The notes under the pieces were generated by a model. It did not search any database and had not been told where the DNA came from. It saw only the letters and a list, made by a program, of their open reading frames with translations. From IMG/VR virus record IMGVR_UViG_3300021087_000010: 64,000 bases of DNA; one strand, written 5' to 3'. Position numbers and translations under genes: made by a program. Positions within the stretch are counted from its first letter, which is position 1, and every line of letters starts with the position of its first letter. The stretch is from an uncultured virus (IMG/VR IMGVR_UViG_3300021087_000010) (taxonomy: Duplodnaviria; Heunggongvirae; Uroviricota; Caudoviricetes). Below, piece after piece: positions 18,774 to 40,213 of the stretch.

Positions 18774-19190
18774 TTATATGTCCCCTTCTGCTCTTTCTTC
18801 GCTTCTGGTAGCTTCAAAGCCGTTTGGATACCTTTTCTCAAGTTTATTTATATTTTCTTCCATTACTTGCTGAGGTGTGTACCCTAGTGCTGTGCAACCT
18901 TGAACCCAATACCATAGAACATCTCCCAACTCTCGTTTGAGATGGAATCGTTCGTCTTCTGTAAAAGGTTTGCCTTGAAATATTATTTTCTTAACTACTT
19001 CTGAAAACTCTCCTGATTCGGCTTGCATGCCTATAGAAGAAGTGAGTAGCTGTGAAAATTCTACAGAAGTTGTTATATCTAATTTCAATAGTCTATCGAC
19101 TAGAGCTAATGTATTTAGACTTTCTTCTGATGTAGTTGATAGTACGAATTTTCCGTACTGATTAAATTGTTTTTGTTCTGTTTCTGTCAT
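18774..19190 (-). CDS. MazG-like nucleotide pyrophosphohydrolase
   Basis: ESGEFSEVVKK, ELGDVLWY and NINKLEKRYP. Confidence 0.88.
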   Translation of the reverse strand: MTETEQKQFNQYGKFVLSTTSEESLNTLALVDRLLKLDITTSVEFSQLLTSSIGMQAESGEFSEVVKKIIFQGKPFTEDERFHLKRELGDVLWYWVQGCTALGYTPQQVMEENINKLEKRYPNGFEATRSEERAEGDI

Positions 19191-21401: not shown

Positions 21402-21887
21402 TTAAATTTCACTAAATAAGTTTGCTTCTGCTTTTCTTCTCTTAATTAATCCTTCTAGAACTTGTCCACCTGCTTTATTCCATCGTTTAATTTCGATAGG
21501 TACTGCTTGGTAGTTTCCGTTATTGAGTTCTTTTAAAAGAGTGCTTTTTCTGAAGTTGGTGGGGCCGAGGTTGTATACCCATACTACTAGGGCATCAAAC
21601 TGGTTTTGATTTAGGGGGACTGTTACTAGGTCATCTACATAACTTTCATACTCTTTGAGTTCGTCAAGTAACATTTGTTCTGCTTGCTCTTGAGTAATTG
21701 TCATGCCTTCGTACACACCTTTAGTGTGCCCATATCCTATAGTCCACACACCTACAGAGTCCTGATAAGCTACGAGTTTGCAACCTTCATAGAACTTTAG
21801 TAAGTCTGTTCCTTTATATCCTAAATTCATTAATATGTATCCTATTATTAGTAGTATAATTACTACCCATTGTAAAAAATTGTTCAT
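21402..21887 (-). CDS. GH24 lysozyme endolysin with N-terminal TM (SAR-type)
   Basis: EG...AYQDSVGVWTIGYGHT, NQFDALV..YNLG and GL..RR.AE. The start at 21887 overlaps the IscA stop and gives a hydrophobic N-terminus. Confidence 0.92.
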   Translation of the reverse strand: MNNFLQWVVIILLIIGYILMNLGYKGTDLLKFYEGCKLVAYQDSVGVWTIGYGHTKGVYEGMTITQEQAEQMLLDELKEYESYVDDLVTVPLNQNQFDALVVWVYNLGPTNFRKSTLLKELNNGNYQAVPIEIKRWNKAGGQVLEGLIKRRKAEANLFSEI

Positions 21888-22192
21888 ATGGTAAAGCTTT
21901 CGCCACAACCACACCTGCTTGTTTCCATACCATTCGTAACAGATATTTCTTCATTAATACCTTTTACCTCCCAATCAACTACTGCGTTAGCTAGTATTTC
22001 ATGGCTATGTATATCAACTGCTAATATATTTTGGTATAATATATCATTGGAATTATTAGGGTTATCCTCATAATTCAAATCATACTTATATCCTCCACAT
22101 CCGCCACCTTTGACGGAAAGCCTCGCGCCCCAACTTCCTGCTGAGACGCAACGCTCTTTAAGTTTTGATAATGCTTTTTCTGTTATTATCAT
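21884..22192 (-). CDS. iscA: A-type Fe-S carrier (IscA/HesB family)
   Basis: GGGCGGY and C-terminal CGCGESF. Confidence 0.88.
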   Translation of the reverse strand: MIITEKALSKLKERCVSAGSWGARLSVKGGGCGGYKYDLNYEDNPNNSNDILYQNILAVDIHSHEILANAVVDWEVKGINEEISVTNGMETSRCGCGESFTI

Positions 22193-22203
22193 AACACTTG
22201 TCT

Positions 22204-22371
22204 TTATAACCAATTAAAGTAAGGCCACATTACTATATATGATAAACTAATCATGTATATAGTGAATGTTATTCCTATACAAGTATTCCCGTTTGGGCAA
22301 TACTTATCTTTAAAGTCTTGAACCGCTTGCAGACTAACATTGCGATTCAGGAATCGTAATGCTCTCTGCAT
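22204..22371 (-). CDS. small membrane protein
   Basis: Manual 55-aa ORF MQRALRFLNR... with AGGAG SD. Confidence 0.55.
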   Translation of the reverse strand: MQRALRFLNRNVSLQAVQDFKDKYCPNGNTCIGITFTIYMISLSYIVMWPYFNWL

Positions 22372-25586: not shown

Positions 25587-27595
25587 TTACTTGTAATAAA
25601 GGTTTAAGCCTAAGAAAGCTTCTCTTACGCCACTATCTTCTGAACCAATGTCAATCTTAGCATTGCCTGCACTGCTTGCTATCAACTGAGTTTTACCACT
25701 AGCTGAGGGCCCAAGCTCTTTATTCGTATCTATTTTGATGGTTAAAATGCCATCATTCATTTCGTAGCTTAAACTACCGTTTTTTCCTATTTGTTCCATT
25801 AATCCTCCTCTGGATTGTCGTCTATGTTAAAATCTGGGGTAAATTCAAAATCATCTCCCCATTCGTTTGTGAACTCTATATCTGGCCCTTCCAGCTTATA
25901 AAGTATTGCTAATTCTTTGAGAACTACCCCAATTTCCTCAGCATTTGCACTTATCACTTTTTGCAAATGTTCTATGTCTGCGTGTATAAAAGAAGTTTCA
26001 GTTTCCAACTCTTGTAATTTAGCCTCTAGAATCTTTATTTTGGACTCATTCTGTGGCTGATTAGGGAATTTTATTACATTGCTTACCATAACTTCCACTT
26101 TGTATCCTTAGCGTTTTCTAGGTCAGCTACTTCATTCTTTAATCTAGCTATTTCTCTTTTCCTAAAAGCTATTTCTTTATCTGCTTCAGCATGTTTCCCA
26201 GCTTTTAGCCACCACTTTCGTACTAAGTCCCATGCGTCCTCGGGGTCTAAGACTTTGTAGCCTTTAACTATATATTCCATTAAGTCAGTAATTACAATTT
26301 TTCCGTTTTCTACTTCAATACTTAATGAAAAATCTTCTGCGATATCTAAAAGATTGCCTCTTTCGAGGATTTTACATATATCAGCAGGTACTACTAATAT
26401 TTGGTCTGTATAATTATCATTTGTTGCCATTAGCAAACTCCTCCGCTGTCATAGCGAAATCTATATGAACCGAACTATCTTTACAGTCGTGGGCCTTTGC
26501 CCATTTTTCTGCTCTTTCATAAACTTTATCTCTGAATTCTTCTTCGTCAATACAATTTAAAATAATATCTTCTTGCTTATCAAAAGACATAGTTATTTGC
26601 CCAATCCATTTCTGTCTACCTATTACTTTGTCATGACCATCTCTAACGACTCCGTCTCGTTGGCTAACTTTTAGTTGTTGCATCTGCCATATAGCTCTTG
26701 CAGCTTTACTTGTTTCATTTACTTCCATACTAGTTTCACTCCTCTTCTTTGCAGTTCGTTTGTGCACTTTTGTCTTACTTTTGGTTTAGTTCTATCACTA
26801 TTAATGGCTTCTAGTAAAGTTGCTTTACTTTGGCACTTAATGTAAAAGTGATTCCATTTCGTAGTTTTAACAGCCGTATTCATTCTCCCAAAGGAGTTTT
26901 TACTGTAAGCTCTTTCGCTTTGTTTAAATTTAGTTGGCATTTCTTGTTTTCTCCTGTAATTCTACACCGATTAAAAATTCTATTGTTTCTGCTACTTTTG
27001 GTTCTGTTTTAACCAATAGGTGAGCAACCCCTGTTATTTGTTTTACACTCATAGAGGCTAAGTACTCCACTATATGTTTTGTACTGTCATCTATAAGTTT
27101 ACTACTATTCGGCATTTTGTGCCTCCTGTAGCTTTCTGATTGGCTTCATATGTCGTTCATATCTAGCGTCTTCATCTACTTTTGTAAATAAAGGGCATAC
27201 AGCTTCTGCATCTTCTTTAGCCATAATAGGGTCTAACCCTACAAGCTGAATAGGTACATCATACTGGTCAATCGTTAATTCTTCTTCTGGCTCTGCGAAT
27301 TTTCTTTTTATCAAATTCCATAGCCTTCTACTCCTAGTTCCATGAGAGTGGTTATTAAATTTTCTTCTGTTTACCACTATATTCTCCTTACGCCTTCTGC
27401 GTATTCTCTTTCTTCTGGGTTTATCTTTGGCTCTTCTATTTCCGCTTTAGGGTCTACTACTATTCTAGCTGTCCCATCACTATAGCCTACCATCTTTCTG
27501 CGCTTGATTTCTTTTCTAGCGTCTTTTCCAAATTTATCTTGCCTGTCTCTAAGCATTTGTAAATCTTTGTCTGTTGTACTTAATAATAAAGTCAT
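25587..27595 (-). CDS. operon of eight small early hypothetical proteins (25587-25799, 25799-26098, 26083-26436, 26417-26767, 26719-26940, 26930-27115, 27105-27377, 27377-27595)
   Basis: Tightly overlapping co-oriented ORFs, several with GGAG SD motifs. Confidence 0.6.
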
Positions 27596-27599
27596 TTTG

Positions 27600-27743
27600 C
27601 TACTCCTGTTCTTCTGTGTTATTTTGTTGTTTACGAGAATATTTAGTCCTATCGCGCATTCTACAGGCACGATTAAATCTCCGAGCAAATTTTGCTACGG
27701 GGTTACGATTTTTTCTCTTAGGATTTTTAGTTCTCTTTTTCAT
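27600..27743 (-). CDS. small highly basic protein (NPVAK motif, possibly ArfA-like)
   Basis: Manual 47-aa ORF MKKRTKNPKRKNRNPVAKFARRFNRACRMRDRTKYSRKQQ..., with leaderless promoter geometry. Confidence 0.6.
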   Translation of the reverse strand: MKKRTKNPKRKNRNPVAKFARRFNRACRMRDRTKYSRKQQNNTEEQE

Positions 27744-27799
27744 ATATCTATTATACTACGCTTTCAGTGAATTGTCAAGAACTATTTTTTACTAGGCAT

Positions 27800-27826
27800 A
27801 AAAAAACCCCGCACTCTGGCGGGGTT
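27800..27826 (-). terminator. intrinsic terminator
   Basis: AACCCCGC-cagagt-GCGGGGTTTTTTT on the - strand. Confidence 0.85.
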
Positions 27827-27848
27827 CAAAAATGTTGATTATTTAGAT

Positions 27849-28715
27849 TGGCGGGTGAGTAAATCCTTCAGCCGTCTGTAGGGGATTAGGCTACTTACTA
27901 CTTGAGTTCTCGTTAGGGCTCAGCGTCATGAATTCGCATTTTCGTCCATTTATTACTGCTCTCGTAGATTTGTTATGTTGCACTATTAATGCTTGCATTG
28001 TATGTTTAAGTAGTTCGTATGCTCTTCCACTTGTCAATTTATTACTCGGCTTATACACTCCGATGTTTAGTACTGCCCCCTTCATTTGCAATCACGCAGG
28101 TACTAGATGAACTCTCGCCGTTCTCGGATTCTCACTCGAGAGTGCTCCTTCCGAAGAGTTGGCTATCCTCTATGCTCTTAGAGTTCTTACCACAGGGTTG
28201 GTTTGATAGCTTAATTAATTTTACTACTTGGTGTCCTTCTCACCCATGCATTATTTAACGACCTGTTCTTTCGGGTCGGAACCAGGCTCATATTTTTCCT
28301 GCCTTCCTAGTCACAGACAGCTGTCTCATACAGCCTGCCGAGACGACAGACTGTATCAAGGTATGATGTAGTGTACCACCCTGCATAGTGATGCTTTGTT
28401 TTACATGAGGCTCAATCACTGCGCGCTCTGACTCATGGTTTGTTATTTGAAGGATTTATCACTAGTGCGTGCTAGATTTACTACCCCTTTTCCGAGCATT
28501 CCGCTCCCGAGATGTTATCGTGGCATCTACGGCTCAATCACGACCCAATTTCTAGGCGGGACACCTACTTACCAATGGTAATGCTGGTAAGCGCAATAAT
28601 CGGGAAGAAGAAGCGTATTTAAAGGCTAGGATTCCGCGTCTACACGCGACACCATTATTGCTCTTTCATAAAGCCCGAAGGCTATTTTTTACTTTTGGTC
28701 TTTTTCTCAATTTCT
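27849..28715 (-). ncRNA. putative large structured ncRNA (GOLLD/ROOL size class)
   Basis: Bounded by TTGACA-17-TATAAT (28722-28750) and a terminator (27800-27826). No credible ORF, raised GC, many hairpins and a long-range 11-bp helix 28448-28458/27860-27870. Confidence 0.7.
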
Positions 28716-28833
28716 GTATATATTATACTAAATTTTTGAAGCTGTGTCAAGAAGTTTCTTAAGATTTGCTTAAAATACTTTTTGGGAATCTGCTAGGGAA
28801 TCTCACGATTAACCCTAGCATATCCTTTGGGAC

Positions 28834-29151
28834 TTAGCTTAATATGTCAACTAATTTTTGTAAATCAGCTTTACTAGCTTTTACTAAAGTCGGTAATTCG
28901 ATGCCGAAGTGTACATTAATCTGAGCAACAAGTTCAGCTTTGCGAACAACTGGCTCACCTGATTTGGTAACCTTTGGTTGTGCGATGTATACGCCTTCTC
29001 TTGATAACTTAGCTATTATGCTTCTTACGGATTTTCCGAACTCAGCGGCTAGTGCTTCAACAGTATCTCTGGTAGGGTTAGCTTCGTACATTGCTGTCAT
29101 TTGCTCTACCATTGCGTCTGTATAATTTTTTGCTCTTGCTACTTCTGTCAT
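28834..29151 (-). CDS. T5 A2-like DNA-binding protein
   Basis: Architecture like T5 A2 (N-terminal HTH with SV.S.KL...Y, C-terminal RKA.LV...L.KA...L). Own promoter and CAGGAG SD. Confidence 0.65.
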   Translation of the reverse strand: MTEVARAKNYTDAMVEQMTAMYEANPTRDTVEALAAEFGKSVRSIIAKLSREGVYIAQPKVTKSGEPVVRKAELVAQINVHFGIELPTLVKASKADLQKLVDILS

Positions 29152-29240
29152 TGTTTTCTCCTGCGAAAATTGTGTTATTAAATTTTGTTTATGGTATTAT
29201 TATATCACGCTACCAGTTGCGTGTCAAGGGTTAGCTTATG

Positions 29241-29366
29241 CTAGAGTAAACCCTTTGCCTCTAGAGCGATTGCGAAAATCGCTAATGTTAGAAAAATTAC
29301 TAGCGAGTAAAGTATGGAATACTTATTCCAATGTTTCGCTATTTTGTATTTCTCGTAATTTGTCAT
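29241..29366 (-). CDS. 41-aa single-TM protein
   Basis: Manual ORF MTNYEKYKIAKHWNKYSILYSLVIFLTLAIFAIALEAKGLL, downstream of a consensus promoter at 29378-29406. Confidence 0.5.
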   Translation of the reverse strand: MTNYEKYKIAKHWNKYSILYSLVIFLTLAIFAIALEAKGLL

Positions 29367-29568
29367 TTATAGTATCTATTATATAGAGCGTAATCAGTGT
29401 TGTCAAGAATTATTTTAAGATAGCACTCATTATTTAACGCCAGCGAACTCTCGGGGGCCGAACGCGAAATCTCGAAACTTCGTTTCAAATATCGCAAAAA
29501 ACGAAAATTCCTCGGCGGGTGTGCGTAAATCTTCCCGAAACTTCGCATAACCCCGCATAAGCTATTTC

Positions 29569-29597
29569 TTGACATTCTGTCCCCGCTATGGTATAAT
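29569..29597 (+). promoter_or_regulatory. consensus sigma70 promoter with no downstream ORF
   Basis: TTGACA-17-TATAAT. Confidence 0.75.
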
Positions 29598-29886
29598 ATC
29601 CAGGGTGGGAAGGGGGATATCCTAGATTTAGTACTCGCTCGCACGCTCGCGCGTAATTTCATGTGTTTACTACTATGCGACGCTACGGCGCAGCCGGCAT
29701 TAATTTCATTTGTTTACTACTGTGTGTTCGGCGCGCTCGCTGTGAAAAGTGAAACAGTCGCTATAGGGAGGCGTCCCAAAGTGAAATATATTTAGCCCTC
29801 TGAGAGGTTAATTTAGGAAAAGTGAGATAGTTAGCGTCTCATTTTAGACTGTTTTAAATTATTTCACTATTCGCGTAAGAAAAGAC

Positions 29887-29922
29887 TTGACAAATCGTAA
29901 AAAGCGTGGTATAATGGGCGCC
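29887..29922 (+). promoter_or_regulatory. consensus sigma70 promoter with GC-rich discriminator, no ORF
   Basis: TTGACA-17-TATAAT-GGGCGCC, followed ~25 nt later by the hairpin AACCCCGA...TCGGGGTT. Confidence 0.75.
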
Positions 29923-29988
29923 GCCCAAGCCTAAACGCAAAAAACCCCGACACGGCTTGGCTCGTTCGGGGTTGTTTCGGTACTCGTT

Positions 29989-30138
29989 TTAGGAGAGTAA
30001 GCCTTTGACCATTTCTAGTGCTTCAATGTTAGCTCTGCTAAGGGATTGTGCTATTTTAGGGTCTACGCCTTTGGCGATTATCTCATTGATGAGGGCTTTT
30101 TTAGTTGGTCTCGCAACTTTTGCTTTTTCTTGTTTCAT
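29989..30138 (-). CDS. small protein resembling the A2 C-terminal domain
   Basis: MKQEKAKVARPTKKALINEII...SLSRANIEAL. CAGGAG SD and own promoter. Confidence 0.6.
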   Translation of the reverse strand: MKQEKAKVARPTKKALINEIIAKGVDPKIAQSLSRANIEALEMVKGLLS

Positions 30139-30243
30139 GTCTTTCTCCTGATTAACTACTATTATATAGAGCCAACAGGGAATTGTCAATAAGAATTATA
30201 GACTTGGCTTAAGATATATTTGATGCCACGCGCAAGAAAGTAC

Positions 30244-30277
30244 TTGACTTTCCCTCCCCGCTGTGGTATAATGGCGC
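30244..30277 (+). promoter_or_regulatory. consensus sigma70 promoter with GC-rich discriminator, no ORF
   Basis: TTGACT-17-TATAAT-GGCGC. Confidence 0.75.
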
Positions 30278-30424
30278 TGCCGCGCGTAGACTTTAAACTT
30301 CACATTTGCACTTTGTTTGGCGCGCACGCCACTTTTAAACTTCATATTTGCACTTCCTCTCTGGCGCAGGCGGCACGCGTAATTTCATATCACCACTACT
30401 TCGGCGCGCTTTGGCGCAGCGCGG

Positions 30425-30447
30425 ATGAGAATGATTATCATTCTCAT
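30425..30447. promoter_or_regulatory. Fur-box-like palindrome 1 (extended)
   Basis: ATGAGAATGAT-T-ATCATTCTCAT. Confidence 0.7.
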
Positions 30448-30519
30448 TTGGCTTTTTTCAGGCAAAAGAGAATCCCCTGAGGCTATTAGGGGCATTACCA
30501 TTACGAAAGCTAAGTCAGT

Positions 30520-30705
30520 TTAGCTTGCGTTGAGCATACGAAGAATCAATTCCAAATTTTGGATATTGGTTCTTTCAAGAGATACCATGTTAAACTCACC
30601 GCCACCTAAAAGTGGAGAATCAGTTTCCATGATATTTCTTATAAGCTCTTTTTTGGATTTTGCTTTCGCTTTTTCCATTTCAGGCTCCGAAGAATTGTTA
30701 AACAT
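30520..30705 (-). CDS. small protein resembling the A2 C-terminal domain
   Basis: SKKELIRNIMET...GGEF..VSLERTNIQNL. Leaderless promoter geometry. Confidence 0.65.
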   Translation of the reverse strand: MFNNSSEPEMEKAKAKSKKELIRNIMETDSPLLGGGEFNMVSLERTNIQNLELILRMLNAS

Positions 30706-30750
30706 AAGGGTATTATAGCAAAAAAACGCAGACCTGTCAAGCGAAAAAGC

Positions 30751-30967
30751 GAAAATAAATAAATTATTTTCCTTGACATTTCCGAGCGGCTGTGTTATAA
30801 TCGGCGCTCCAAATGAGAATCATTCTCATTTGGCTTTCTTGTTTTTTTGGGCTTTTTTTGGTGGCTTATCTCGTCGTGCTTTATAATTTGGTATAACCAA
30901 ATTATAAAGCGTGTCGGCGTATTTGTCAAGCATTTTTCGGAAAATAAATAAATTATTTTCCTTGACA
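30751..30967. repeat. convergent-promoter cassette, copy 1
   Basis: + promoter 30773-30801, Fur-like box 30811-30831, 33-bp palindrome 30878-30910, - promoter to ~30930. Repeated at 32344-32549. Confidence 0.85.
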
Positions 30968-30993
30968 TTTGGCAAAATTCGTGCTAGGAATTT

Positions 30994-31593
30994 TTAACCT
31001 GTGGCTCGAATTAATGCGTCTAAAAGTTCAATTTTTCCTGTGTCTTTTTGAACCACATTCCAAGAAGGGCAAGTTGAAAACATAATTTCTTTTGCGTTCG
31101 TAATTGCTTCAAAATAATCAATCGCTAGAGCGTCAGAGGGAGAATATTTATAAGGCTTATTTATTTTTCTGTTTTCTAAAACGATAGCTTGTCTTTCTTT
31201 AGAAATTGAAATCCAATTTTTGTATATCTCAACATTTTTTTCTGTAAGCATTTTATTTTCCCATTTGGCAACCTTTCGCATATGATTAATATATTGTCTT
31301 TTTGTGCAATAATTAAAAACAGGGTGAACCCATGAGCGTGTGTGCCACGACCTATCATAAATAACAACCTCTGATTTTTTCGGCATGATTTTTTCATAAT
31401 CAGAAAGCCATTTTTTCATGCGTGTTTTTGTCGGCATACCTTGATGACGATAAACAAAGTTAATATCATTTTTAATTAGTAGCTTGACAAAGCCACCTTT
31501 TCCAGAAGCGTCTCGACCTTCCAAAACAAAAGCGATTTTTCTATCGCCTAAGTTTTGGATATTTTCTTTTAGCATTTCGATTGAATTTTTCAT
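30994..31593 (-). CDS. ppk2: polyphosphate kinase 2 family protein
   Basis: Walker A VLEGRDASGKGG, DRSW, K.WISIS..RQ and YKYSPSD. The start overlaps the upstream stop (ATGA). Confidence 0.82.
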   Translation of the reverse strand: MKNSIEMLKENIQNLGDRKIAFVLEGRDASGKGGFVKLLIKNDINFVYRHQGMPTKTRMKKWLSDYEKIMPKKSEVVIYDRSWHTRSWVHPVFNYCTKRQYINHMRKVAKWENKMLTEKNVEIYKNWISISKERQAIVLENRKINKPYKYSPSDALAIDYFEAITNAKEIMFSTCPSWNVVQKDTGKIELLDALIRATG

Positions 31594-31832
31594 AGTACCC
31601 AGATTAAAGTTAGTAAAGGAATAACAACCCAAATTATAAAATCGGTTGTTAGTGAATATCTGAAATATAGTTTTTTCAGAAAATTAGTTGCGACAGTTTC
31701 AGTTCCAATTTGAAAATCGAAATTTTCTTTTTCTAGGATTTTACAAGCTGTTTCAAATTTTTTGACATCTTCGGAATTGTCAATTTCAAAGTTGGTTTTT
31801 ATTGTTAGTCTTTTTGTTATTAATTTTTTCAT
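31590..31832 (-). CDS. small C-terminally anchored membrane protein
   Basis: 80 aa with a hydrophobic C-terminus. Confidence 0.55.
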   Translation of the reverse strand: MKKLITKRLTIKTNFEIDNSEDVKKFETACKILEKENFDFQIGTETVATNFLKKLYFRYSLTTDFIIWVVIPLLTLIWVL

Positions 31833-31836
31833 TGTT

Positions 31837-32298
31837 TTATTTTAGCATTAAATGGTCTTGATGTAAACAGTTAATTCCAATTTTTTGCATTTCTTTTTGA
31901 ATTATTTTGTTATCATCAAACATGATTTTTTCCATGTTTTTAAATTGTTTTAGATTGAAAAGTCTTTTCAGTTTTGCTGTTTTCATTTCAGCGTCGGCTC
32001 TGTGGTCGCCATTTTTTCTGCAAAGAATAGTTTTTGCTTTGATTCCATGATGAGCCAAAAAGTCAAAATCTGCTTTGCTCATATTTCTAGCTGTGCAAAT
32101 CCAAACATTTTTATTTGCTTTTATTAATGCTTTCATAAAATCGGCAAGTGGCAAAAGTGAATCTTTGAAAATGTTTTTTCTTGTGGAATCTGAAATCCAT
32201 TTTTCAAGGTCTAATTTTCCTTCGGCAGTTCCTGTGAATCTGTGCGAAGAATCAATGACAGTTCCGTCAAGGTCAAATATGTATAATTTATTTTTCAT
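31837..32298 (-). CDS. HAD-superfamily phosphatase (PNKP-phosphatase-like)
   Basis: FDLDGT, ICTAR, D..MK and MFDD. Confidence 0.85.
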   Translation of the reverse strand: MKNKLYIFDLDGTVIDSSHRFTGTAEGKLDLEKWISDSTRKNIFKDSLLPLADFMKALIKANKNVWICTARNMSKADFDFLAHHGIKAKTILCRKNGDHRADAEMKTAKLKRLFNLKQFKNMEKIMFDDNKIIQKEMQKIGINCLHQDHLMLK

Positions 32299-32343
32299 AA
32301 TGTAATTATATCAAAAAAAGCAAGACCTGTCAATAAAAAAGAT

Positions 32344-32549
32344 GAAAATAAAAAAAATAAATCGCTTGACATTGGGCGGCTTTTGTGGTATAATCGGCGC
32401 CTCCAAATGAGAATCATTCTCATTTGGGGTTTTTATTTTTTGGGGTCTTTTCGAGGCGTGCTTTATAATTTGGTATAACCAAATTATAAAGCGTGTCGGT
32501 CCAAATGTCAAGGGTCTCAAGGAAAATAAATAAATTATTTTCCTTGACA
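32344..32549. repeat. convergent-promoter cassette, copy 2
   Basis: + promoter 32366-32394, Fur-like box 32405-32425, 33-bp palindrome 32460-32492, - promoter to ~32511. Confidence 0.85.
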
Positions 32550-32608
32550 ATCTCCTCTATTTATGCTTGCGGCTCATTCATGAAATCTATAGCTTCCTAT
32601 AGATTCCA

Positions 32609-33034
32609 TTAATAAGGCTTTTTGTATATAGAGCCATCTCGTTTTCTCTCCCACGCCATAGGCATAGGCGCAGGTGATTTTTTAAAGTGTCTAAAACCTA
32701 ACGCTAGATATTTCTTTATCTTAGGCATTCCACCCTTGACATAGAACCATTCAGAACCACCATTAGATTTAACGCCAGTAGTCCTAGAGTTCTGACCTTG
32801 CCATTTCTTTTGATAGCCTAGCTTAGCGAGATAGTATTGTATTTGCCATTCGATAGAGTAAGCGTCATGTTTAGAAGCTATCTCTATAGTGTGTAATACC
32901 TTGAGCCTATGGTCTAAGCCATATTCCTTTTGTATAGATGTCTCTATATCATAACGCCTATGGTGTATGTCATTGGCTACACCTATCTTATGATAGGGTT
33001 TCTTATTACATTTCATTATGTATAGTGTAGTCAT
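32609..33034 (-). CDS. GIY-YIG/T5orf172-like nuclease
   Basis: LYIM...HKIGVA...R...IE..I...GGSEWF. Confidence 0.7.
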   Translation of the reverse strand: MTTLYIMKCNKKPYHKIGVANDIHHRRYDIETSIQKEYGLDHRLKVLHTIEIASKHDAYSIEWQIQYYLAKLGYQKKWQGQNSRTTGVKSNGGSEWFYVKGGMPKIKKYLALGFRHFKKSPAPMPMAWERKRDGSIYKKPY

Positions 33035-33572
33035 TAGTCTCTTGCTCCTGTCATTATAACCAGTGATAAGCAAAGGCTAGAAGCAACCGAAGTCAATACC
33101 AATAGGGCAATTTCAATAACCCATATATCAGTATATCCGACATCTTCAAAGCATAGCACATTATTCTGTGCAGTTAATATTACCATAGCTTGCATATAAG
33201 CTATGAACCCAAATGCCACCATTCCCATTGATGACGCAATCAATATAGTTTTATTTAACATTATATTATTATCCTTATTAACATAGAACCATTAAGAGCC
33301 AAGCCAATTAAATTACCTATGGTATAAACCATATCGCCCTGTTTCCACGCTCTGTATTGGTAGCATAGCAACCCAAGACATATACCTGTGGGCAATGTCC
33401 AGTGTGGCATGATACCATTATAATGCGAGGGTAACAAAGAAACCTGTACCAAAAACATACCAAGATAAGCGACCTTATCTTCAAAAGATATTTTTGTTTT
33501 AATCTCAATATCGTTAATGAGATTGGCTCTGTGAGAAGCCAAGATTTTTTGTTGTCTAATTGTTTGATTCAT
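33034..33572 (-). CDS. two small membrane proteins (33034-33261; 33261-33572, three TM, PQ-loop/SemiSWEET-like pattern)
   Basis: Hydrophobic segments and a C-terminal GDMVYTIGNLIG. Confidence 0.5.
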
Positions 33573-33622
33573 AATAATTCCAGTAAAAATGGGGGCTGAG
33601 TAATGGCAACCCCCGAACCATT

Positions 33623-33802
33623 TTATTTTGCGTCTTTCAGCAAAATGTCTCTAAGAAGAATAAGATTAAAAATATTCATTCTTTCCAAAGATACATGGTC
33701 GAATTCTCCACCAGTATTTGTTGGGGTTTCAATGATTTCTCTAATCAAGATTTTTTTAGAGGGTCTTTTTGGAAGTGAGTTTCCAGCTTTTTTATTTAAC
33801 AT
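33623..33802 (-). CDS. small protein resembling the A2 C-terminal domain (paralogue of 30520-30705)
   Basis: Manual 59-aa ORF ...PSKKILIREIIETPTNTGGEFDHVSLERMNIFNL, preceded by TTGCTA-17-TATAAT-6nt. Confidence 0.7.
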   Translation of the reverse strand: MLNKKAGNSLPKRPSKKILIREIIETPTNTGGEFDHVSLERMNIFNLILLRDILLKDAK

Positions 33803-33888
33803 ACCTGTATTATACAGGAAGATTAACCCAATAGCAATAGCAAAACCGAAAATAAATGAATTAATGCGACACCATATGACGCAGGGTT

Positions 33889-33907
33889 AATGATAATCAT
33901 TCTCATT
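33889..33907. promoter_or_regulatory. Fur-box-like palindrome 4
   Basis: AATGATAATCATTCTCATT. Confidence 0.7.
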
Positions 33908-33921
33908 TGGGGCCCCCGTCA

Positions 33922-33977
33922 TAGTGTAGTAGTAGAGTAACACACCCCGCCTTAGTGTATTAGTATAGTAACACACC
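33922..33977. repeat. 25-bp imperfect direct repeat x2 (TAGTGTA.TAGTA.AGTAACACACC)
   Basis: Copies at 33922-33946 and 33953-33977, flanked by G/C runs. Confidence 0.85.
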
Positions 33978-34143
33978 GAGGGGGCGGTTCATTGACCTTG
34001 ACACGCTCTCTCTCTGTGGGCCCCCCTTTACGTACTACTTGGGATTTTTCAAAAAAGCAAAAAAGACGCTATCGTCAGTATCATAATGATACATCTAGAA
34101 AATATTTCTTGACAATACTGCTAAATTTTGATATAATACTAGC

Positions 34144-34605
34144 ATGAGTACAAATTTAGTAACCAAAATGAGTCCTGAAGGACTGGAGATCGCAAACGCT
34201 TATCTGGAGAAGGGAACTATCCCGGCCGTTTGCACTAAATTAGGCATAACCGAAAATGAGGTTAGTGAAGTCCTAAATAAAAGAGAAATCAAACAATATA
34301 TAGATACTGTTTTTCTAGACACAGGTTATAGAAACCGATTTAAAATATCGGAAACTTTAGATATGCTTATTGAAAAAAAGCTAGAAGAAGCAGATGAAAC
34401 TGAAATATATACTACTAAGGATATGGCAGATCTATTACAGATGGCACATAAAATGAGAATTGAGGAATTGAAAGCTCAGACAGAAATGGAAAAAGCAAAA
34501 GCGCAAACCATTAAAACTCAAGTTAATATTCAAGACAATTCTGGAACCCCTTTTGGGCAAGGAAACTATGGACTACTCATAAAAAAATTGATGAAAGATC
34601 AATAG
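34144..34605 (+). CDS. terminase small subunit (T5-like)
   Basis: MSPEG.EI..AYL, GYRNR, KKLEE and AHKMR match my recollection of T5 TerS. Leaderless promoter at 34109-34137. Confidence 0.8.
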   Translation: MSTNLVTKMSPEGLEIANAYLEKGTIPAVCTKLGITENEVSEVLNKREIKQYIDTVFLDTGYRNRFKISETLDMLIEKKLEEADETEIYTTKDMADLLQMAHKMRIEELKAQTEMEKAKAQTIKTQVNIQDNSGTPFGQGNYGLLIKKLMKDQ

Positions 34606-34666
34606 ACACATTCCGTGTCAAGAATGGTTTATCGGGGGAGAGTCCGAAACCTAAAGGGAGAAAAAA

Positions 34667-35833
34667 ATGAAAAGACTAGCCTTACTAGCTGGCCTACTAG
34701 TGTTCACACCACTACAAGTGTTTGCTGATGGACCAGATCAGACTGGAACAGGTTGTGCTAATGGTACTGAATTTTGCGAAAACAATACTTTAGATACTAC
34801 TAATACTACTACTACTACTAATACAAACACGAATACCAATACAAATGCTAATACCAATACTAACACTAATACAAACACAAATACTAATACAAATACCAAC
34901 ACCAATACTAACGCTAATACAAATACCAACACGAATACTAATACAAATGCTAATACCAATACTAATACAAATGCGAATACTAATGTAAATACCAGTACTA
35001 ATACTAATGCTAATACAAATGTAAATACTAATACTAGTACTAACAACAATACTAATACTAACAACAATACAAACAATAATACCAATACTAATACTAACAA
35101 TAATACCAATACTAATACTAACAATAATACCTCAACCTCAACTAGTAATAATACTAATACGAATAATAACACAAACACAAATGTGAATACTTCTACTGTT
35201 GACAGTACTTCGAACTCTACTAGTAATAATACAAATAATAATAATAACACTAATACTAACAATAGTACTAGTAATAACACTAGTAATAATACTAATACAA
35301 ATAACAACACCTCAACTTCTGACAGTAATGTAACTACTGATAATACTAATAACAATAACAACAATACTAAGTCAGATAATAGAAACGAAAATTATAACAA
35401 ATCTGAGTCAGTTCAAACAATTAATCAGAATGTTAAATCTCCTCCCCCAAGTGCAATCGCACCTTCAATTATGTCCTATTCGCAAGATTTATGTACAAGT
35501 GGAGTATCAGGAGCAGTACAAACACAAGTTTTCGGATTTTCTGGTGGTAAAGCGATAGTTGACAAAAATTGTGAAAGATTAAAACTCTCTAAATACTTAT
35601 ACGACATGGGCATGAAGGTAGCTTCTGTTGCTTTACTTTGTCAAGATAAAAGAGTATTTGCAGCTATGGAAATGGCGGGAACTCCTTGTCCTTACATGGG
35701 TGAAATAGGAAAGAAAGCCACTATAGCATGGGCAGAAAATGAAGAAGACAAACCAACTTACGAGAAAGTAGTAGAAAAAGGAAAATCTTGTAAACGAAAA
35801 GGAAAACGTAAGCCGGGCGCAATCTGTAAATAG
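34667..35833 (+). CDS. secreted protein with long Asn/Thr repeat and Cys-rich C-terminal domain
   Basis: Signal peptide, ~190 aa of NT repeats, then PPPSAIAP...C..GVSG...NCERLKL...C.D.RV...GTPCP. Confidence 0.85.
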   Translation: MKRLALLAGLLVFTPLQVFADGPDQTGTGCANGTEFCENNTLDTTNTTTTTNTNTNTNTNANTNTNTNTNTNTNTNTNTNTNANTNTNTNTNTNANTNTNTNANTNVNTSTNTNANTNVNTNTSTNNNTNTNNNTNNNTNTNTNNNTNTNTNNNTSTSTSNNTNTNNNTNTNVNTSTVDSTSNSTSNNTNNNNNTNTNNSTSNNTSNNTNTNNNTSTSDSNVTTDNTNNNNNNTKSDNRNENYNKSESVQTINQNVKSPPPSAIAPSIMSYSQDLCTSGVSGAVQTQVFGFSGGKAIVDKNCERLKLSKYLYDMGMKVASVALLCQDKRVFAAMEMAGTPCPYMGEIGKKATIAWAENEEDKPTYEKVVEKGKSCKRKGKRKPGAICK

Positions 35834-38443
35834 ATGAACATGAACCTATTTCCTAAATTTGCACTGGTGGCTCTGTTAGGAGCCTTCTGTGCGAGCCCCA
35901 TACAAGCTGATTACATCTATGAAGCAAATCAAGGTTTATACGATTTACAAACTAATTCATCGGGTACAACAGGATTGGGCTCAAATGATGATTCAGTATC
36001 AGGAGCTTTTAATTTAGGTTTTACTTTTACTTTTTATGGTGAAGACTTCACTCACGCTAGAATGGCAACTAATGGTTGTCTTCATTTTAAGACTTCAGGA
36101 GCTTACTGCAACGATTATACACCCGACCCCTTAACAGGACAACACACTTATACTTTATATCCTTTTTGGACTGATTTAATAAAAGATAATGGTTCAGCTA
36201 TGAAAGCTAAGGCTTTTAATGACTATACTATTTTTGGTTGGTATAAGATGAGGGAGTATAATCAATCTAATACAGATAATAGTTTTGAAGTTTGGTTATA
36301 TCCTAATAACACATTTGAATATAGATATCGTGAACTTGATATTGATAGTCATGATGTACTTATTGGAGAAATAGGAAGTGGAACATCAGAAATGTATACT
36401 TATCTATACCATGATGAATGTAATACAGGTACGACCAACTCTAATAGCTGTGTAAGCGTTAACTGGAATAGTACCTCTTTTAATACTTTATTAGAAAACG
36501 GGGGTTCTTTGTATGGAGTAGGCACAGGAAATGCATTAGATTGTAGCAGCGCATTAAATAATGAAGCCTGCCCAGGATATGCAGCAGCCTATTTAACACA
36601 ACAATGTGATATAAACTCTTTATATAGCAACTCTTGTACTGGTTATGCAGCAGCATACTTAGCTCAACAATGTGCTTTAGATTCTTTATACGATTCAGCG
36701 TGTCCTTACTATGCTTCAACTTTATTTGATGCTGATTGCGAAGATGACCCTCAATTCTCTCCAGCCTGCGCAGGTTACACACAAGAAGCCTCCGTAGCTT
36801 ATTATACTGAGTATGAAGAGGATACGTATGGCTATGAAGAAGATTCTCAATATGGTTATGACGAAGATGGAAATGCTTGGGCTGAAGAAGATATGTGGTA
36901 TGATGAAGAGTATGATGAGTACTTAGACCCAAATGACCCTTGTTTTGAAAACAGGTGCGAAGGATTCACAGATGCTGATTGGTACGCACTAGATATAGAA
37001 GAATTTGGACAAGAACAAGTTGACCTATTATACGGAACTGAAGTAGCTTTTGATAATGAAGGCATGGTGAATTTTAGTGAAAGCACTCATAGTACTTATG
37101 ATGACTTAGACACTAACTTTGATATAATGGATCAAGAAATGGAAGAATACCATGCTTATGTAGATGACCTTCCTGAACTATTTGAGATAGAAGAATTTTC
37201 AACAGTTACTGATTATATACCAAATGACTTATTAGAAGAGTTCGAATTCCAAGTTTTAGTACTTAATGATACATTCCGTGAAGAAGAAGAAATTTTTGAA
37301 GAATTTGAAAATATTGAAGAATTTGAAGAATGGTATGAAGAAGAAATGGAAGAGTACTTCTCCGAAGAAGTTTTTACCGAAGAAGAATATGAAGAAGAAC
37401 TTTACGCAGAGGAAGAGATATTTGAAGAAGAATTTGTTGAAGAAATTTTTGAAGATATAGAAGAACTAAGGGAAGAATTAATCGAAGAAGAGCTACTTGC
37501 AGAGGAAGGCGAAAGAGCTCAAACAGAAGAACTACTCGCTGAGGAAACTCCAGAGTTAGTTGCTTTTTCAGAGCCCGCAAGACAATCAGACCGTTCTTCA
37601 CGAAGAGAAGCAGCAAGAAGAATAGTTGCAGGAACAATAGCAGCAGCTACACGAAGTACAGACTATAGTGGCAGTACTGCAGGAACCTCAGCAACACAAA
37701 CAGGAACTTCTGTAGCTTCAGGTGGGGCCTCTTCAACAGGTGGTATAAGTGTATCAAGTTCCCCTAGTATATCAGACCAATTTTCAAGTGCTTCACAACA
37801 AACTCAACAAGTTTTATCTATGAGCCCTAGTACTGCTGTAGCAAGTAGTTCAGTAGGTGGAGGAGGAACAACCTTTGCAAGTTCATCAAGTTCCTCAAAT
37901 TCCTCAAACTCATCAAGTACAGTGGTAGCTTCAAATACTTCAAGCTCCTCTAGTAGTGATTCGAGTACTTCAGGTTCCTCGACCTCAGAGTCTTCAGTAG
38001 GCTCTTCTTCAGTATCTATAACACCAATGCCAGGAATAGATGGAACAGCAACTGGAGCAATGGTAGATGTACAAGTTTCCAACTTATCTGGAGAAATTGA
38101 TACTGCAATGTCTGGCGCTATGACAGCTTCCGAAGCTGATACAATAGCAGATCAAATTGTTGCAGCTAATATTGAAGAACAACAAGAACAAGGAACAACT
38201 ACTCAAGAAGAAACAGGAAAATATGGAGACGAGAGTACTCTTGTAGCCTATTTAGGATATGTGCCAGGTTTTAATGCCTATACAAGTGCACAACTTCCAA
38301 AACAAACAAGCTGGTATGAGCCAACATCTCTTGATGGTGGTTATATAGAAGACAACATACAAGCATTTTATCAATTAGCAGGTACTAACATAAGAAATAT
38401 GACTGCTATGGTTAATTCACAACCAAATTTATTAGGAGAATAA
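35834..38443 (+). CDS. large secreted acidic protein (NIDO-like N-terminus, Cys repeats, Glu-rich and Ser-rich tracts)
   Basis: Signal peptide, LGFTFTFYG..NG...YPFWTDL, and C.GYAAAYL.QQC repeats. Confidence 0.8.
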   Translation: MNMNLFPKFALVALLGAFCASPIQADYIYEANQGLYDLQTNSSGTTGLGSNDDSVSGAFNLGFTFTFYGEDFTHARMATNGCLHFKTSGAYCNDYTPDPLTGQHTYTLYPFWTDLIKDNGSAMKAKAFNDYTIFGWYKMREYNQSNTDNSFEVWLYPNNTFEYRYRELDIDSHDVLIGEIGSGTSEMYTYLYHDECNTGTTNSNSCVSVNWNSTSFNTLLENGGSLYGVGTGNALDCSSALNNEACPGYAAAYLTQQCDINSLYSNSCTGYAAAYLAQQCALDSLYDSACPYYASTLFDADCEDDPQFSPACAGYTQEASVAYYTEYEEDTYGYEEDSQYGYDEDGNAWAEEDMWYDEEYDEYLDPNDPCFENRCEGFTDADWYALDIEEFGQEQVDLLYGTEVAFDNEGMVNFSESTHSTYDDLDTNFDIMDQEMEEYHAYVDDLPELFEIEEFSTVTDYIPNDLLEEFEFQVLVLNDTFREEEEIFEEFENIEEFEEWYEEEMEEYFSEEVFTEEEYEEELYAEEEIFEEEFVEEIFEDIEELREELIEEELLAEEGERAQTEELLAEETPELVAFSEPARQSDRSSRREAARRIVAGTIAAATRSTDYSGSTAGTSATQTGTSVASGGASSTGGISVSSSPSISDQFSSASQQTQQVLSMSPSTAVASSSVGGGGTTFASSSSSSNSSNSSSTVVASNTSSSSSSDSSTSGSSTSESSVGSSSVSITPMPGIDGTATGAMVDVQVSNLSGEIDTAMSGAMTASEADTIADQIVAANIEEQQEQGTTTQEETGKYGDESTLVAYLGYVPGFNAYTSAQLPKQTSWYEPTSLDGGYIEDNIQAFYQLAGTNIRNMTAMVNSQPNLLGE

Positions 38444-39184: not shown

Positions 39185-39790
39185 ATGAAAAAAATACTCG
39201 CATTAATACTAACCTTAACTGCAACATCAGCTTTTGCTGACGTTAGCGGAGGTGTTAGTTTAGTTTCAGATTATTTCTGGAGAGGCGTAAGCCAAACAGA
39301 GGGTTCCGCTGCAGTCCAATTTGGAATAGAAGCAGACAAAAATGGTTTTTATGGTGGGGCTTGGGCATCTACTGTAGATTTTGGAGGAGACGAATCCATA
39401 GAATATGATTTCTACGGAGGATATACTGTTGCACTTGGGGATTTAGCGATAGATCTTGGAGTAATTCAATATAACTATGATGATGGCGCAGATTCTGTAG
39501 AAGAATGGTATTCAGTACTTTCTTACAGTGTATTATCTCTTGGTTATTATCAAGATATGGATAATCAAAATGCTGATTACGTAGAAGTAGAAGTAGGACT
39601 CCCATTTGTTAAATTTATAGACGCATCTTTAAGATACGGTGAATTTGCAGATGATAGTAACTATACACAATTAACTCTCTCAAAAGACTTATCAAACAGT
39701 TTTTCAGTAGGACTAGAATTAGTTTCAGAAGAAGCTATTGATTTAGACTTATCAGAAAGAGTTGCAGTAAATTGGGGGTGGTCATTCTAA
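39185..39790 (+). CDS. TorF/Gcw_chp-like putative outer-membrane porin
   Basis: Signal peptide, VSDYFWRGVSQT..AVQFG...GFYGGAWAS, EYDFYGGY and terminal F. Confidence 0.85.
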   Translation: MKKILALILTLTATSAFADVSGGVSLVSDYFWRGVSQTEGSAAVQFGIEADKNGFYGGAWASTVDFGGDESIEYDFYGGYTVALGDLAIDLGVIQYNYDDGADSVEEWYSVLSYSVLSLGYYQDMDNQNADYVEVEVGLPFVKFIDASLRYGEFADDSNYTQLTLSKDLSNSFSVGLELVSEEAIDLDLSERVAVNWGWSF

Positions 39791-40213
39791 GTGGCTTACT
39801 CACAAAAAGTAGTACAACGATTTGAAAATGTACTAAAAAACCCACAAGCACATAACGTTGGTCGTTTTGACCCTGCTAAACCTAATATTGGTACTGGTAT
39901 GGTCGGAGCTCCAGCTTGTGGAGATGTTATGAGATTACAACTAAAAGTTGAAGATGGCATAATTGAAGACGTTAAATTTAAAACATATGGTTGTGGATCA
40001 GCCATAGCAAGTTCGAGTGAGTTAATCGACTTACTTACAGGCAGTACTTTGGAACAGGCGAAATCTATCACTAATAAACAAATAGCTAACGCATTAGAAC
40101 TTCCGCCTATCAAATTACACTGTTCTGTACTCGCTGAAGATTCAATTAAACAAGCTGTAGGTGATTATGAATCCAAAGCAGAGCAAAGAAGGCACAATGG
40201 AGGCCCAGAATGA
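39791..40213 (+). CDS. iscU: Fe-S scaffold IscU/NifU-N
   Basis: GAPACGDVM, KTYGCGSAIAS and LPPIKLHCSVLAE. Confidence 0.95.
   Translation: MAYSQKVVQRFENVLKNPQAHNVGRFDPAKPNIGTGMVGAPACGDVMRLQLKVEDGIIEDVKFKTYGCGSAIASSSELIDLLTGSTLEQAKSITNKQIANALELPPIKLHCSVLAEDSIKQAVGDYESKAEQRRHNGGPE

Follow-up and report, generated by a model that had tools for sequence, protein, structure and literature searches.

Bacteriophage T5 has a terminal repeat and transfers its DNA into the host in two steps, and what stops and restarts this entry has, to our knowledge, been an open question since the 1960s. The T5 receptor, FhuA, is itself controlled by the host regulator Fur. Non-coding DNA of another kind is found in the hyperplastic regions of T4-type phages, where promoter/stem-loop cassettes flank small genes. 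DnaA boxes have been described in the untranslated injection-stop region of T5, with binding to membrane-bound DnaA proposed; the words Fur, ferric and iron are absent from that preprint (10.1101/866236). In lambdoid coliphages, a Fur box puts the sitABCD cargo operon under host iron control (PMC6969025). Here we analyse a block at positions 29400-34050 of a 64,000-nucleotide stretch (the window) from an uncultured virus of the Caudoviricetes (IMG/VR IMGVR_UViG_3300021087_000010). We read this block as the pre-early (host take-over) control region of a marine T5-like phage, made up of putative Fur operators, predicted sigma-70 promoters, shuffling cassettes and, in relatives, DnaA boxes, a reading to which we give an even chance.

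An earlier note, made from the letters of the window, had called the block an array of host-protein binding sites and knew of no such module. As a description by sequence the phrase is fair, the candidate sites being Fur-family operators, with DnaA-box pairs in relatives. The claim of novelty survives in part: host-protein (DnaA) sites and host-protein binding in the T5 stop region already appear in that preprint (10.1101/866236), and the Fur part was not found in print. Among the papers searched, none links T5 or lytic phage genomes to Fur boxes, and an earlier mention is possible.

Fur-like palindromes in a T5-like genome

By gene content and order, the window has a T5-like organisation. The - strand of 1-27 kb encodes SbcCD-type nuclease subunits, a single-strand-binding protein, helicases, DNA polymerase, primase, a D5-like regulator, a split NAD-dependent ligase, an endolysin and three tRNAs. 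The + strand from 34.1 kb encodes the terminase small subunit (TerS), TerL, portal, a protease/capsid fusion, tail tube, tape measure and tail tip, and the block lies between this terminase end and the early genes. The nearest cultured phages by portal are Demerecviridae with Vibrio, Escherichia, Salmonella, Klebsiella and Proteus hosts, all at ≤39% identity; a DNA search of a phage collection with 27500-35000 gave no match, and the nearest virus record (G001) has no counterpart of the block. Near-identical DNA occurs in 20 metagenome runs, marine or unlabelled, from 16 studies. A search with TerS yielded 55 related viral contigs (57-87% protein identity), hereafter the relatives and given L-numbers; some are near-duplicates, which inflates the counts below. 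We guess the host to be a low-G+C marine gammaproteobacterium such as SAR86, because of the G+C content, the gammaproteobacterial hosts of all relatives by portal, and the matching boxes described below.

The four Fur-box-like palindromes that the earlier note had seen are exact. The motif TGA[GT]AATnATT[CA]TCA is matched with no mismatch at 30426, 30814, 32408 and 33891, and nowhere else in the 64 kb. It follows the 7-1-7 reading of the Fur operator, which is also read as hexamers. Two of the four, at 30814 and 32408, start 13 nt past the -10 element of a + strand promoter (P+ 30773 and P+ 32366; promoters are named by strand and position), so that they span about +5 to +25; those at 30426 and 33891 overlap no promoter.

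The palindrome tended to keep its place as well as its letters in the relatives. In its strict form, TGAGAATnATTCTCA, it occurs 25 times in the zone 0-5.5 kb upstream of TerS (184.6 kb over the 55 loci), vs. no copy in the other 566.6 kb. Perfect DnaA boxes are likewise concentrated (43 in this zone vs. 7 outside) and come in pairs, 11 bp apart, which in many relatives adjoin the palindrome. Among relatives with at least 4.4 kb of upstream DNA, 14 of 26 have a strict box and 21 of 26 a DnaA box. Two settings recur. In the first, which accounts for 7 of the 28 distinct strict boxes, all on the TerS strand, TTGAC[AT]-N16-18 is followed by a -10 element, GGCGC and a box 13 nt past the -10; window boxes 30814 and 32408 and five copies from relatives are of this kind. 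The second begins with a + strand promoter and a DnaA-box pair, which the window lacks; two direct repeats with GGCGC at their ends come next, and then one or two boxes ahead of a bidirectional terminator. Box 1 of the window is placed like the boxes that end this second module (module B) in L024, L026, L033, L035, L039, L043, L053 and L054. Motif conservation without ORF conservation, which the earlier note had asked about, is thus what the relatives present: their boxes lie in the zone, and the + strand open reading frames (ORFs) are not conserved.

The core of the box does not vary among phage copies; where a copy is asymmetric the pairing is lost, and no change was seen that would restore it. 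Overlapping units are offset by 6, 12 or 18 bp, and a 6-bp register is typical of Fur arrays. The box fits better as a protein site than as an RNA stem, because compensatory change is absent, some copies break the pairing, the register is 6 bp and T5 has unpaired half-sites. Three box hairpins with their T-runs (30422-30450, 30809-30833 and 32401-32429) nevertheless appear as terminator-like in the scan.

The same unit is found in T5. What the T5 annotation (AY587007) calls copies 1-4 of direct repeat C and palindromes E-I (9468-9640) are five AAATGAGAATCATT-type units; they lie between the T5 DnaA boxes and the 7.9% nick, in the injection-stop region (Repeat Region 3). The window boxes match the unit type of T5 9468-9640 and of 73416-73530 in Klebsiella phage pzk-kv7. 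In T5, half-sites also occur unpaired, as do tandem units that could form no hairpin; copies that satisfy the strict motif are confined to its terminal repeats. In pzk-kv7, an array of three to four units adjoins a DnaA-type pair and palindrome D. The single box of Proteus phage Stubb lies 20 bp from where the PhageTerm-mapped repeat ends. Boxes with one mismatch were found in two Vibrio phages, 36-50 bp ahead of A2 in JSF12 and, in VCPH, in non-coding DNA 0.8 kb from the right end. We argue that a Fur-type unit kept in place and in letters, despite portals that are ≤39% identical, is functional, and it points to a concrete host protein that can be tested. As a separate observation, T5 (L177) has a perfect 7-1-7 box at 233-247, within the 3' part of dmp and 233 bp from the left end of its genome, and pzk-kv7 (L184) has a corresponding box at 82107, in the 3' part of the last gene of its A1-side cluster.

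A gene links the block to T5 as well. The HAD phosphatase of the block is homologous to the product of T5 dmp, the pre-early gene for a 5'-deoxyribonucleotidase (tblastn of T5 dmp against window 32307-32032: 38.5% identity over 96 amino acids (aa), E 4.2e-14), and T5 dmp has tblastn matches in 25 relatives; it is the sole pre-early protein found common to the window phage and T5. T5-like synteny, the dmp homologue and palindromes that equal the T5 injection-stop repeat unit are our reasons for regarding the block as the counterpart of the T5 pre-early region, the part that T5 injects first, as the earlier note had proposed. Further likenesses are untranslated DNA rich in repeats and palindromes beside pre-early genes, paired DnaA boxes in the relatives, and a T5 palindrome D sequence ~275 bp upstream of TerS in L052, with L010 and L011 close to it. 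The differences are also clear. Beyond the portal divergence and the lack of a detected A1 or A2, the zone is ~5 kb here and 10 kb in T5, and the window dmp points toward the repeat module whereas T5 dmp points away. Rather than forming arrays only, the window boxes are scattered and fused to consensus promoters within cassettes; the 12 kb of T5 itself has no perfect TTGACA-17-TATAAT or TAAAAT site. Finally, terminal repeat and two-step transfer are known properties of T5, and the present phage is known from its sequence alone.

We compared the boxes with bacterial genomes by scanning 185,579 species genomes for the exact 19-mer AATGAGAATnATTCTCATT, with no control motif; it occurred in at least 121 bacterial stretches. 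Among the matches listed, it lay outside any ORF of at least 150 aa in 70 of 80 fully fetched loci, and 25 of 75 flanking proteins belonged to clear metal-uptake or metal-regulation families (five each of TonB plug, FUR and ZnuA, four FTR1, and one each of FecR, ferritin, ZIP, Fe2+ transport, a periplasmic siderophore-type binding protein and a siderophore monooxygenase). Twelve further flanking proteins among these matches are in families common in Fur-family regulons: eight iron-type solute-binding proteins, two AhpC, one ECF sigma factor and one PepSY_TM. Marine matches among those listed include SAR86 (FTR1, TonB receptors) and Pelagibacteraceae (iron-type binding proteins).

By sequence, then, the window palindromes are Fur-family operators. 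Like bacterial Fur boxes, the inverted repeat matches 13 of the 15 positions of the 7-1-7 form, with one consensus half in two of the copies; units overlap in a 6-bp register; bacterial iron-uptake and fur genes have the identical 19-mer ahead of them; and the phage box lies over a promoter start in 7 of 28 distinct copies. Unlike them, the phage boxes are found in a virulent phage and not before an iron gene, with binding predicted from the letters, and there are four copies in 4.6 kb, whereas the SAR86 and Pelagibacteraceae genomes examined have 1-3 per Mb (strict boxes in four SAR86 genomes: 1-3 per 0.9-1.2 Mb). As with the sitABCD boxes of lambdoid prophages, a phage-borne Fur box would link phage DNA to the host Fur regulon; there the box belongs to a host-type cargo operon, whereas the present boxes lie in the non-coding DNA of a putative early control region, in a T5-like phage that is lytic. 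Pfam and PHROGs scans found no Fur-family gene among the predicted proteins of the window. The window does encode a NifU/IscU-like scaffold at 39791-40210 (+; PF01592, E 5.5e-41) and an IscA-type iron-sulphur carrier at 21887-22213 (-; PF01521, E 1e-6).

Promoters, cassettes and genes of the block

The block is densely supplied with consensus matches, which we read as predicted sigma-70 promoters. Between 27500 and 34700 there are 14 perfect sites on the two strands, where 0.0055 are expected from 2000 shuffles, and the other 56.8 kb have 7. The earlier note counted at least five + strand promoters with no ORF behind them. Four of these (29569, 29887, 30773 and 32366) match TTGACA-17-TATAAT at 12/12 positions and have an extended -10 TG, the fifth (30244) matches at 11/12, and none has a conserved ORF behind it. 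On the - strand, perfect sites with an extended -10 are at 32511, 32333, 30929, 30740, 30189, 29406, 29227, 28750 and 27778.

We looked at the 13 + strand ORFs of at least 30 aa by tblastn against the 55 relatives. Nine match none; two match one or two loci, at a promoter/box cassette; ORF 30005-30151 matches one locus, on the strand opposite the 49-aa mini-protein gene; and ORF 33992-34147 matches nine loci, at the conserved non-coding element before TerS. As none of the 13 is conserved as a protein, a coding reading of the + strand modules was rejected. The possibility raised earlier that + strand promoters drive conserved small genes does not apply to the window, but it does to some relatives, where such promoters serve mini-protein genes (L005 and L033) or a gene for a small membrane protein (L022). 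The orthologue of the 49-aa gene in L005 is inverted relative to the window; thus cassette inversion accounts for part of the ORF-less state.

Two-way transcription appears to be a trait of the family. In the 5.5 kb upstream of TerS, the 55 relatives have 51 consensus promoters on the + and 64 on the - strand. Beyond that zone the numbers are 2 on + vs. 36 on - upstream and 37 on + vs. 0 on - downstream. Promoters on both strands are confined to the 5.5-kb zone, which is why we assign two-way transcription to the zone as a family trait. Strong promoters are in any case a known trait of T5-like phages.

Cassettes A1 and A2 (~265 bp) are 73-86% identical. The two 33-bp palindromes that the earlier note had found identical (30878-30910 and 32460-32492) do have the same letters and lie inside this duplicated cassette; each contains the -10 element of a distal - strand promoter (P- 30929 in A1). 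The proximal - strand promoter and the + strand promoter of each cassette stand back to back across an AT-rich palindromic spacer. In both cassettes the + strand promoter and the distal - strand promoter converge over ~85 bp with the box between them. The same architecture is conserved in L003, L006, L016 and L017, where the large palindrome stands in the same place with its letters changed symmetrically, which suggests a lineage-specific operator or a selected hairpin. The paired repeats and GGCGC-rich spacers of the earlier note were recovered by a repeat scan.

The cassettes probably also act in rearrangement. In run X4, 43 letters common to both copies carry one contig straight from 30874 to 32457, and the 1582 bp with PPK2, the 80-aa gene and the dmp-like gene are missing from it. 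The cassettes therefore recombine in nature, and further small joints were listed between the two boxes. Gene cassettes are inverted or absent between relatives, and the number of related contigs that break off within 6 kb of TerS is 34 of 55 on the upstream side and ~12 on the downstream side, which fits a repeat-rich hypervariable zone. The upstream ends do not share one nucleotide.

Genes on the - strand cover 2781 of the 4651 bases of the block (60%). The description of the block as gene-poor holds in the relative sense, this being low for a phage; it fails in that well over half of the DNA is coding. Each of the nine - strand genes in the block has relatives in other contigs, with tblastn matches at up to 26 loci. 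The three mini-proteins align as paralogues with a common pattern, RPSKK-LI-EI...SLER-NI-NL, and together with family matches for PPK2 and the HAD phosphatase this bears out the gene content given in the earlier note. The mini-proteins have no relative in Pfam, PHROG or PDB, with a faint HeH match (E 0.047) in one of seven members. The start codon of the dmp-like gene (32298) lies 6 nt past the -10 element of P- 32333, and since the 61-aa gene has the same spacing, the mRNAs of both are predicted to be leaderless or nearly so. On the early-gene side, the variable zone is bordered by the conserved gene for a 105-aa protein, which has tblastn matches in 22 of the 55 relatives, ~5 kb upstream of TerS. 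A 99-aa - strand ORF (29363-29662) was rejected as a gene because its DNA is better conserved than the putative protein (76% vs. 47.6% identity to L005). The coordinates are collected in Table 1.

Table 1. Features in and around the block, in window coordinates, with the evidence for each
Feature	Position	Strand	Evidence or content
105-aa DNA-binding protein	28834..29151	-	phrog_1725, E 2.2e-5
Conserved non-coding element upstream of P+1	29427..29560		76% DNA identity to L005
Consensus promoter P+1	29569..29597	+	12/12, extended -10; G-rich start AGGGTGGGAAGGGGG, paired repeats to ~29800
Consensus promoter P+2	29887..29915	+	12/12; faces the terminator and 3' end of the 49-aa gene; no conserved ORF behind
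G+C-rich hairpin, terminator of the 49-aa gene	29944..29973	-	Read from sequence; weaker + strand T-run; absent from the terminator scan list
Mini-protein 1, 49 aa	29989..30138	-	Own promoter 30189-30161; matches in 6 relatives
Promoter P+3, head of non-coding module B	30244..30272	+	11/12; homologous modules of relatives begin with the same kind of promoter
Module B body	30292..30420		Two 38-nt direct repeats, GGCGC-rich spacers
Fur-like box 1	30422..30450		Two overlapping 7-1-7 units (30426, 30432), 6-bp offset
Terminator hairpin of the 61-aa gene	30474..30492	-	Read from sequence; bidirectional terminators here in relatives
Mini-protein 2, 61 aa	30520..30705	-	ATG 6 nt past the -10 of promoter 30740-30712
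Cassette A1	30703-30967		In order: P- 30740, AT-rich palindromic spacer, P+ 30773-30801, CGGCGC, Fur-like box 30809-30833, T-runs, 33-bp palindrome 30878-30910
PPK2 (polyphosphate kinase 2 family)	30994..31632	-	PF03976, E 1.3e-28; 8 relatives match
80-aa conserved protein	31590..31832	-	9 relatives match; no family match in Pfam/PHROG scans
HAD phosphatase, T5 dmp homologue	31837..32298	-	HAD/PNKP-phosphatase family, PF25109, phrog_415
Cassette A2, second copy	32296-32549		P- 32333, P+ 32366-32394, box 32403-32427, T-runs, palindrome 32460-32492, P- 32511
T5orf172-domain protein	32609..33073	-	PF10544, E 4.7e-4; 75% identical in L005
Two small hydrophobic proteins, 75 aa and 103 aa	33034..33572	-	2-3 relatives match
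Mini-protein 3, 59 aa	33623..33802	-	Paralogue alignment, matches in relatives
Fur-like box 4	33889..33907		~250 bp upstream of TerS; in L005 at the same place, -344
Two 31-bp direct repeats, then G-rich element GGGGGCGGTT...GGGCCCCCCTTTACGTAC	33914..34041		Repeat scan; relatives
15-bp palindrome GTATCATAATGATAC, then TerS promoter 34109-34137	34077..34137	+	Sequence reading, promoter scan, relatives
TerS	34144..34605	+	phrog_3802, E 9.3e-38

Proposed working and alternative explanations

The short - strand genes (for the dmp-like phosphatase, PPK2, the T5orf172 protein, the small membrane proteins and the mini-proteins) each have a predicted consensus sigma-70 promoter to themselves, and conserved non-coding cassettes lie between them. 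In the working that we propose, on entry of the DNA, host RNA polymerase would fire the consensus promoters on both strands. Iron-loaded Fur, bound to the two boxes at ~+5 to +25, would shut the ORF-less + strand promoters there and would also block transcripts from the distal - strand promoters that read through the box. In an iron-starved host, with Fur off the DNA, the + strand promoters would fire, and their transcripts would either stop at the box hairpin and T-run or run antisense into PPK2 and the T5orf172 gene. The net effect would be to tie pre-early transcription to the iron status of the host. Secondarily, replicating copies of the boxes could draw Fur off host promoters; such titration is conceivable because four strong boxes stand here, vs. 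one to three per Mb in the bacterial genomes checked. The cassettes would in addition provide joints for recombination, by which gene cassettes are moved or lost. Iron is limiting in much of the surface ocean, and the analysis suggests that an abundant marine phage lineage reads or manipulates the iron status of its host.

A bolder version would make host Fur, together with DnaA, the missing host factor of the T5-type injection-stop region: arrays of Fur operators in the first-entering DNA would form an iron checkpoint that gates pre-early transcription or second-step transfer, strips Fur from host iron-uptake promoters at high copy number, and has been kept from coliphage T5 to marine phages. 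As a whole this is a long shot. If it were true, the T5 design would have been rebuilt in abundant marine phages as Fur-gated consensus-promoter cassettes.

Several observations weigh against reading the block as a Fur-governed pre-early region. The region has no canonical DnaA box (TT[AT]TnCACA), and a strict box is missing from 12 of the 26 relatives whose upstream DNA reaches 4.4 kb or more. Vibrio phage D325 has no box even at one mismatch. T5 A1 and A2 gave no tblastn match at E ≤1 in the window or the 55 loci, distant homologues being possible. The T-run after the box is not conserved, being absent in L003, L005, L006 and L022, so a self-terminating short RNA would be specific to this phage and a few relatives. 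Among the matches listed, the 19-mer also stands before ZnuA (zinc/manganese) and AhpC (peroxide) genes in other phyla, and it is therefore a sign of Fur-family regulators in general rather than of Fur in particular. Lastly, the box is conserved equally in phages of very different hosts, which a phage protein would explain likewise.

This last point leads to the alternative that survives best, in which the palindromes are operators for a conserved phage DNA-binding protein (the 105-aa protein, a mini-protein or the D5-like regulator) that times or shuts pre-early transcription, and their likeness to Fur sites is coincidence or mimicry. Conservation across E. coli, Klebsiella, Proteus, Vibrio and marine phages is what a protein-site pair would leave, DNA-binding candidates adjoin the boxes (phrog_1725, and the mini-protein family with its faint HeH match, E 0.047), and the symmetrical variation of the neighbouring 33-bp palindrome between lineages resembles that of a phage-specific operator. 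We nonetheless consider it unlikely. The box equals genuine host operators letter for letter over 18 specified bases and follows the 6-bp register typical of Fur arrays. Of the pre-early proteins, dmp alone was found in common with T5, with no A1 or A2 homologue; nor did the Pfam and PHROGs scans give the window a Fur-family gene.

The hairpins and T-runs noted above, listed as terminator-like for the window boxes, would suit modules that are purely regulatory or recombinational, as in the T4-type promoter/stem-loop arrangement, with the palindrome an RNA hairpin or terminator and cross-over site that engages no host regulator. Here too an early promoter and a stem-loop are repeated between small variable genes, and the natural contig indicates recombination between copies; both cassettes flank the stretch from PPK2 through the HAD gene, gene cassettes are inverted or absent between relatives, and 34 of 55 contigs break within 6 kb upstream of TerS. 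In the window, however, the stem is a conserved operator sequence without covariation, and the boxed promoters point against the genes. Stems show no compensatory change, asymmetric copies unpair, T-runs are missing in several relatives, and the T5 half-sites and tandem units have no hairpin potential; it is the letters, not the mere stem, that are kept from T5 to marine phages. An explanation by stem-loops without a regulator is accordingly improbable.

The earlier note proposed that the DNA might itself soak up RNA polymerase and repressors of the host, or might sense host state; in its strong form the sensor would halt the incoming DNA until conditions in the host permit the second transfer step. 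The classical Fur titration assay relies on derepression of the regulon by Fur boxes in multicopy, and with 14 perfect promoters in 7.2 kb, perfect + strand ones that are ORF-less, boxes homologous to T5 stop-region repeats and few boxes in the host genomes checked, a sponge or sensor has some appeal. Most of the promoters, however, serve conserved genes, strong promoters are usual in T5-like phages, and no A1 or A2 homologue was found; in particular, DNA that is ~60% conserved - strand genes, each with its own promoter, is not merely a decoy. We regard this explanation as decidedly improbable. That the non-coding modules are a replication origin, with ORF-less promoters giving a priming or activating transcript, is highly improbable: DnaA-box pairs in 21 of 26 relatives, iteron-like direct repeats that follow such pairs, strong ORF-less promoters facing T-rich DNA and a turn of the cumulative GC skew near 35-36 kb would suit it, but canonical DnaA boxes are absent from this part of the window, the skew turns where the genes switch strand, and the Fur-type boxes would be left unexplained. 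Of the other parts of an origin, the window has repeats and T-rich tracts, and Pfam and PHROG scans identified no initiator gene.

Further observations on the window and its relatives

The physical ends of the phage were approached through read and contig depth. In runs X1 and X2, contig depth is 1.4-1.9x higher over ~30.9-34.2 kb, and in X2 it stays high into TerS with no clean step; assembled (Logan) contigs cannot show ends, and the depth differences are inconsistent between runs. Raw-read run X21 matched just a tRNA at 24.6 kb, so the phage is not in that run. IMG/VR classes one 105-kb relative as bearing an end repeat, with ends that lie ~50 kb from TerS and are uninformative on the physical ends.

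Two conserved G-rich elements stand near promoters. One is a G-rich start, A-n-n-AGGGTGG..GGGG at 29603-29627, straight after the consensus promoter P+1; it is conserved in seven contigs, the window and L024, L026, L033, L039, L053 and L054, each time behind a P+1-type promoter. Chi-like and G-quadruplex readings of these starts were considered from the letters. G-rich tracts likewise occur in the stop regions of T5 and the Klebsiella phage. The other, upstream of TerS, is kept in most of 17 relatives inspected, the exceptions being L015, L020, L027 and L051. It forms part of a conserved element at 33979-34091 that reads GGGGG-GGTTA-nn-AGAC, ~30 variable bases and CCCCC-ACGTACAACTTT, followed by a 15-bp palindrome G[CT]ATCATAATGAT[GA]C centred ~60 bp before the start of the TerS promoter. 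The element and palindrome together may be a packaging or late-control site.

No LexA box was found in the window. LexA-type palindromes (CTGT-N8-ACAG) occur in relatives at -277 in L052, -274 in L010, -275 in L011 and -1531 in L025 and L026, relative to TerS.

Between 27800 and 28750 lies an ORF-poor stretch of ~900 bp with ~42% G+C, above that of the genome. It is framed by a perfect - strand promoter of its own (28750-28722) and a strong - strand terminator (27827-27804); its folding is not better than that of shuffles (z -1.28), and it has no Rfam match and no blastn match in the relatives. Over the whole window, Rfam returned just the three tRNAs at gathering score, with nothing credible in 27600-34200 at E ≤1.

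Directly after TerS, two unusual + strand genes (34667-38443) separate it from TerL. The first encodes 388 aa, with an N-terminal hydrophobic stretch that looks like a signal peptide in the translation and long Asn/Thr repeats, which correspond to tandem DNA repeats of 12-18 bp. The second encodes 869 aa, very acidic and Ser-rich, with no family match. Elsewhere, the window encodes a MazG-type pyrophosphohydrolase (18777-19190), a PC4-like single-strand-binding domain (15722-16021) and a Gcw_chp family protein (39185-39787).

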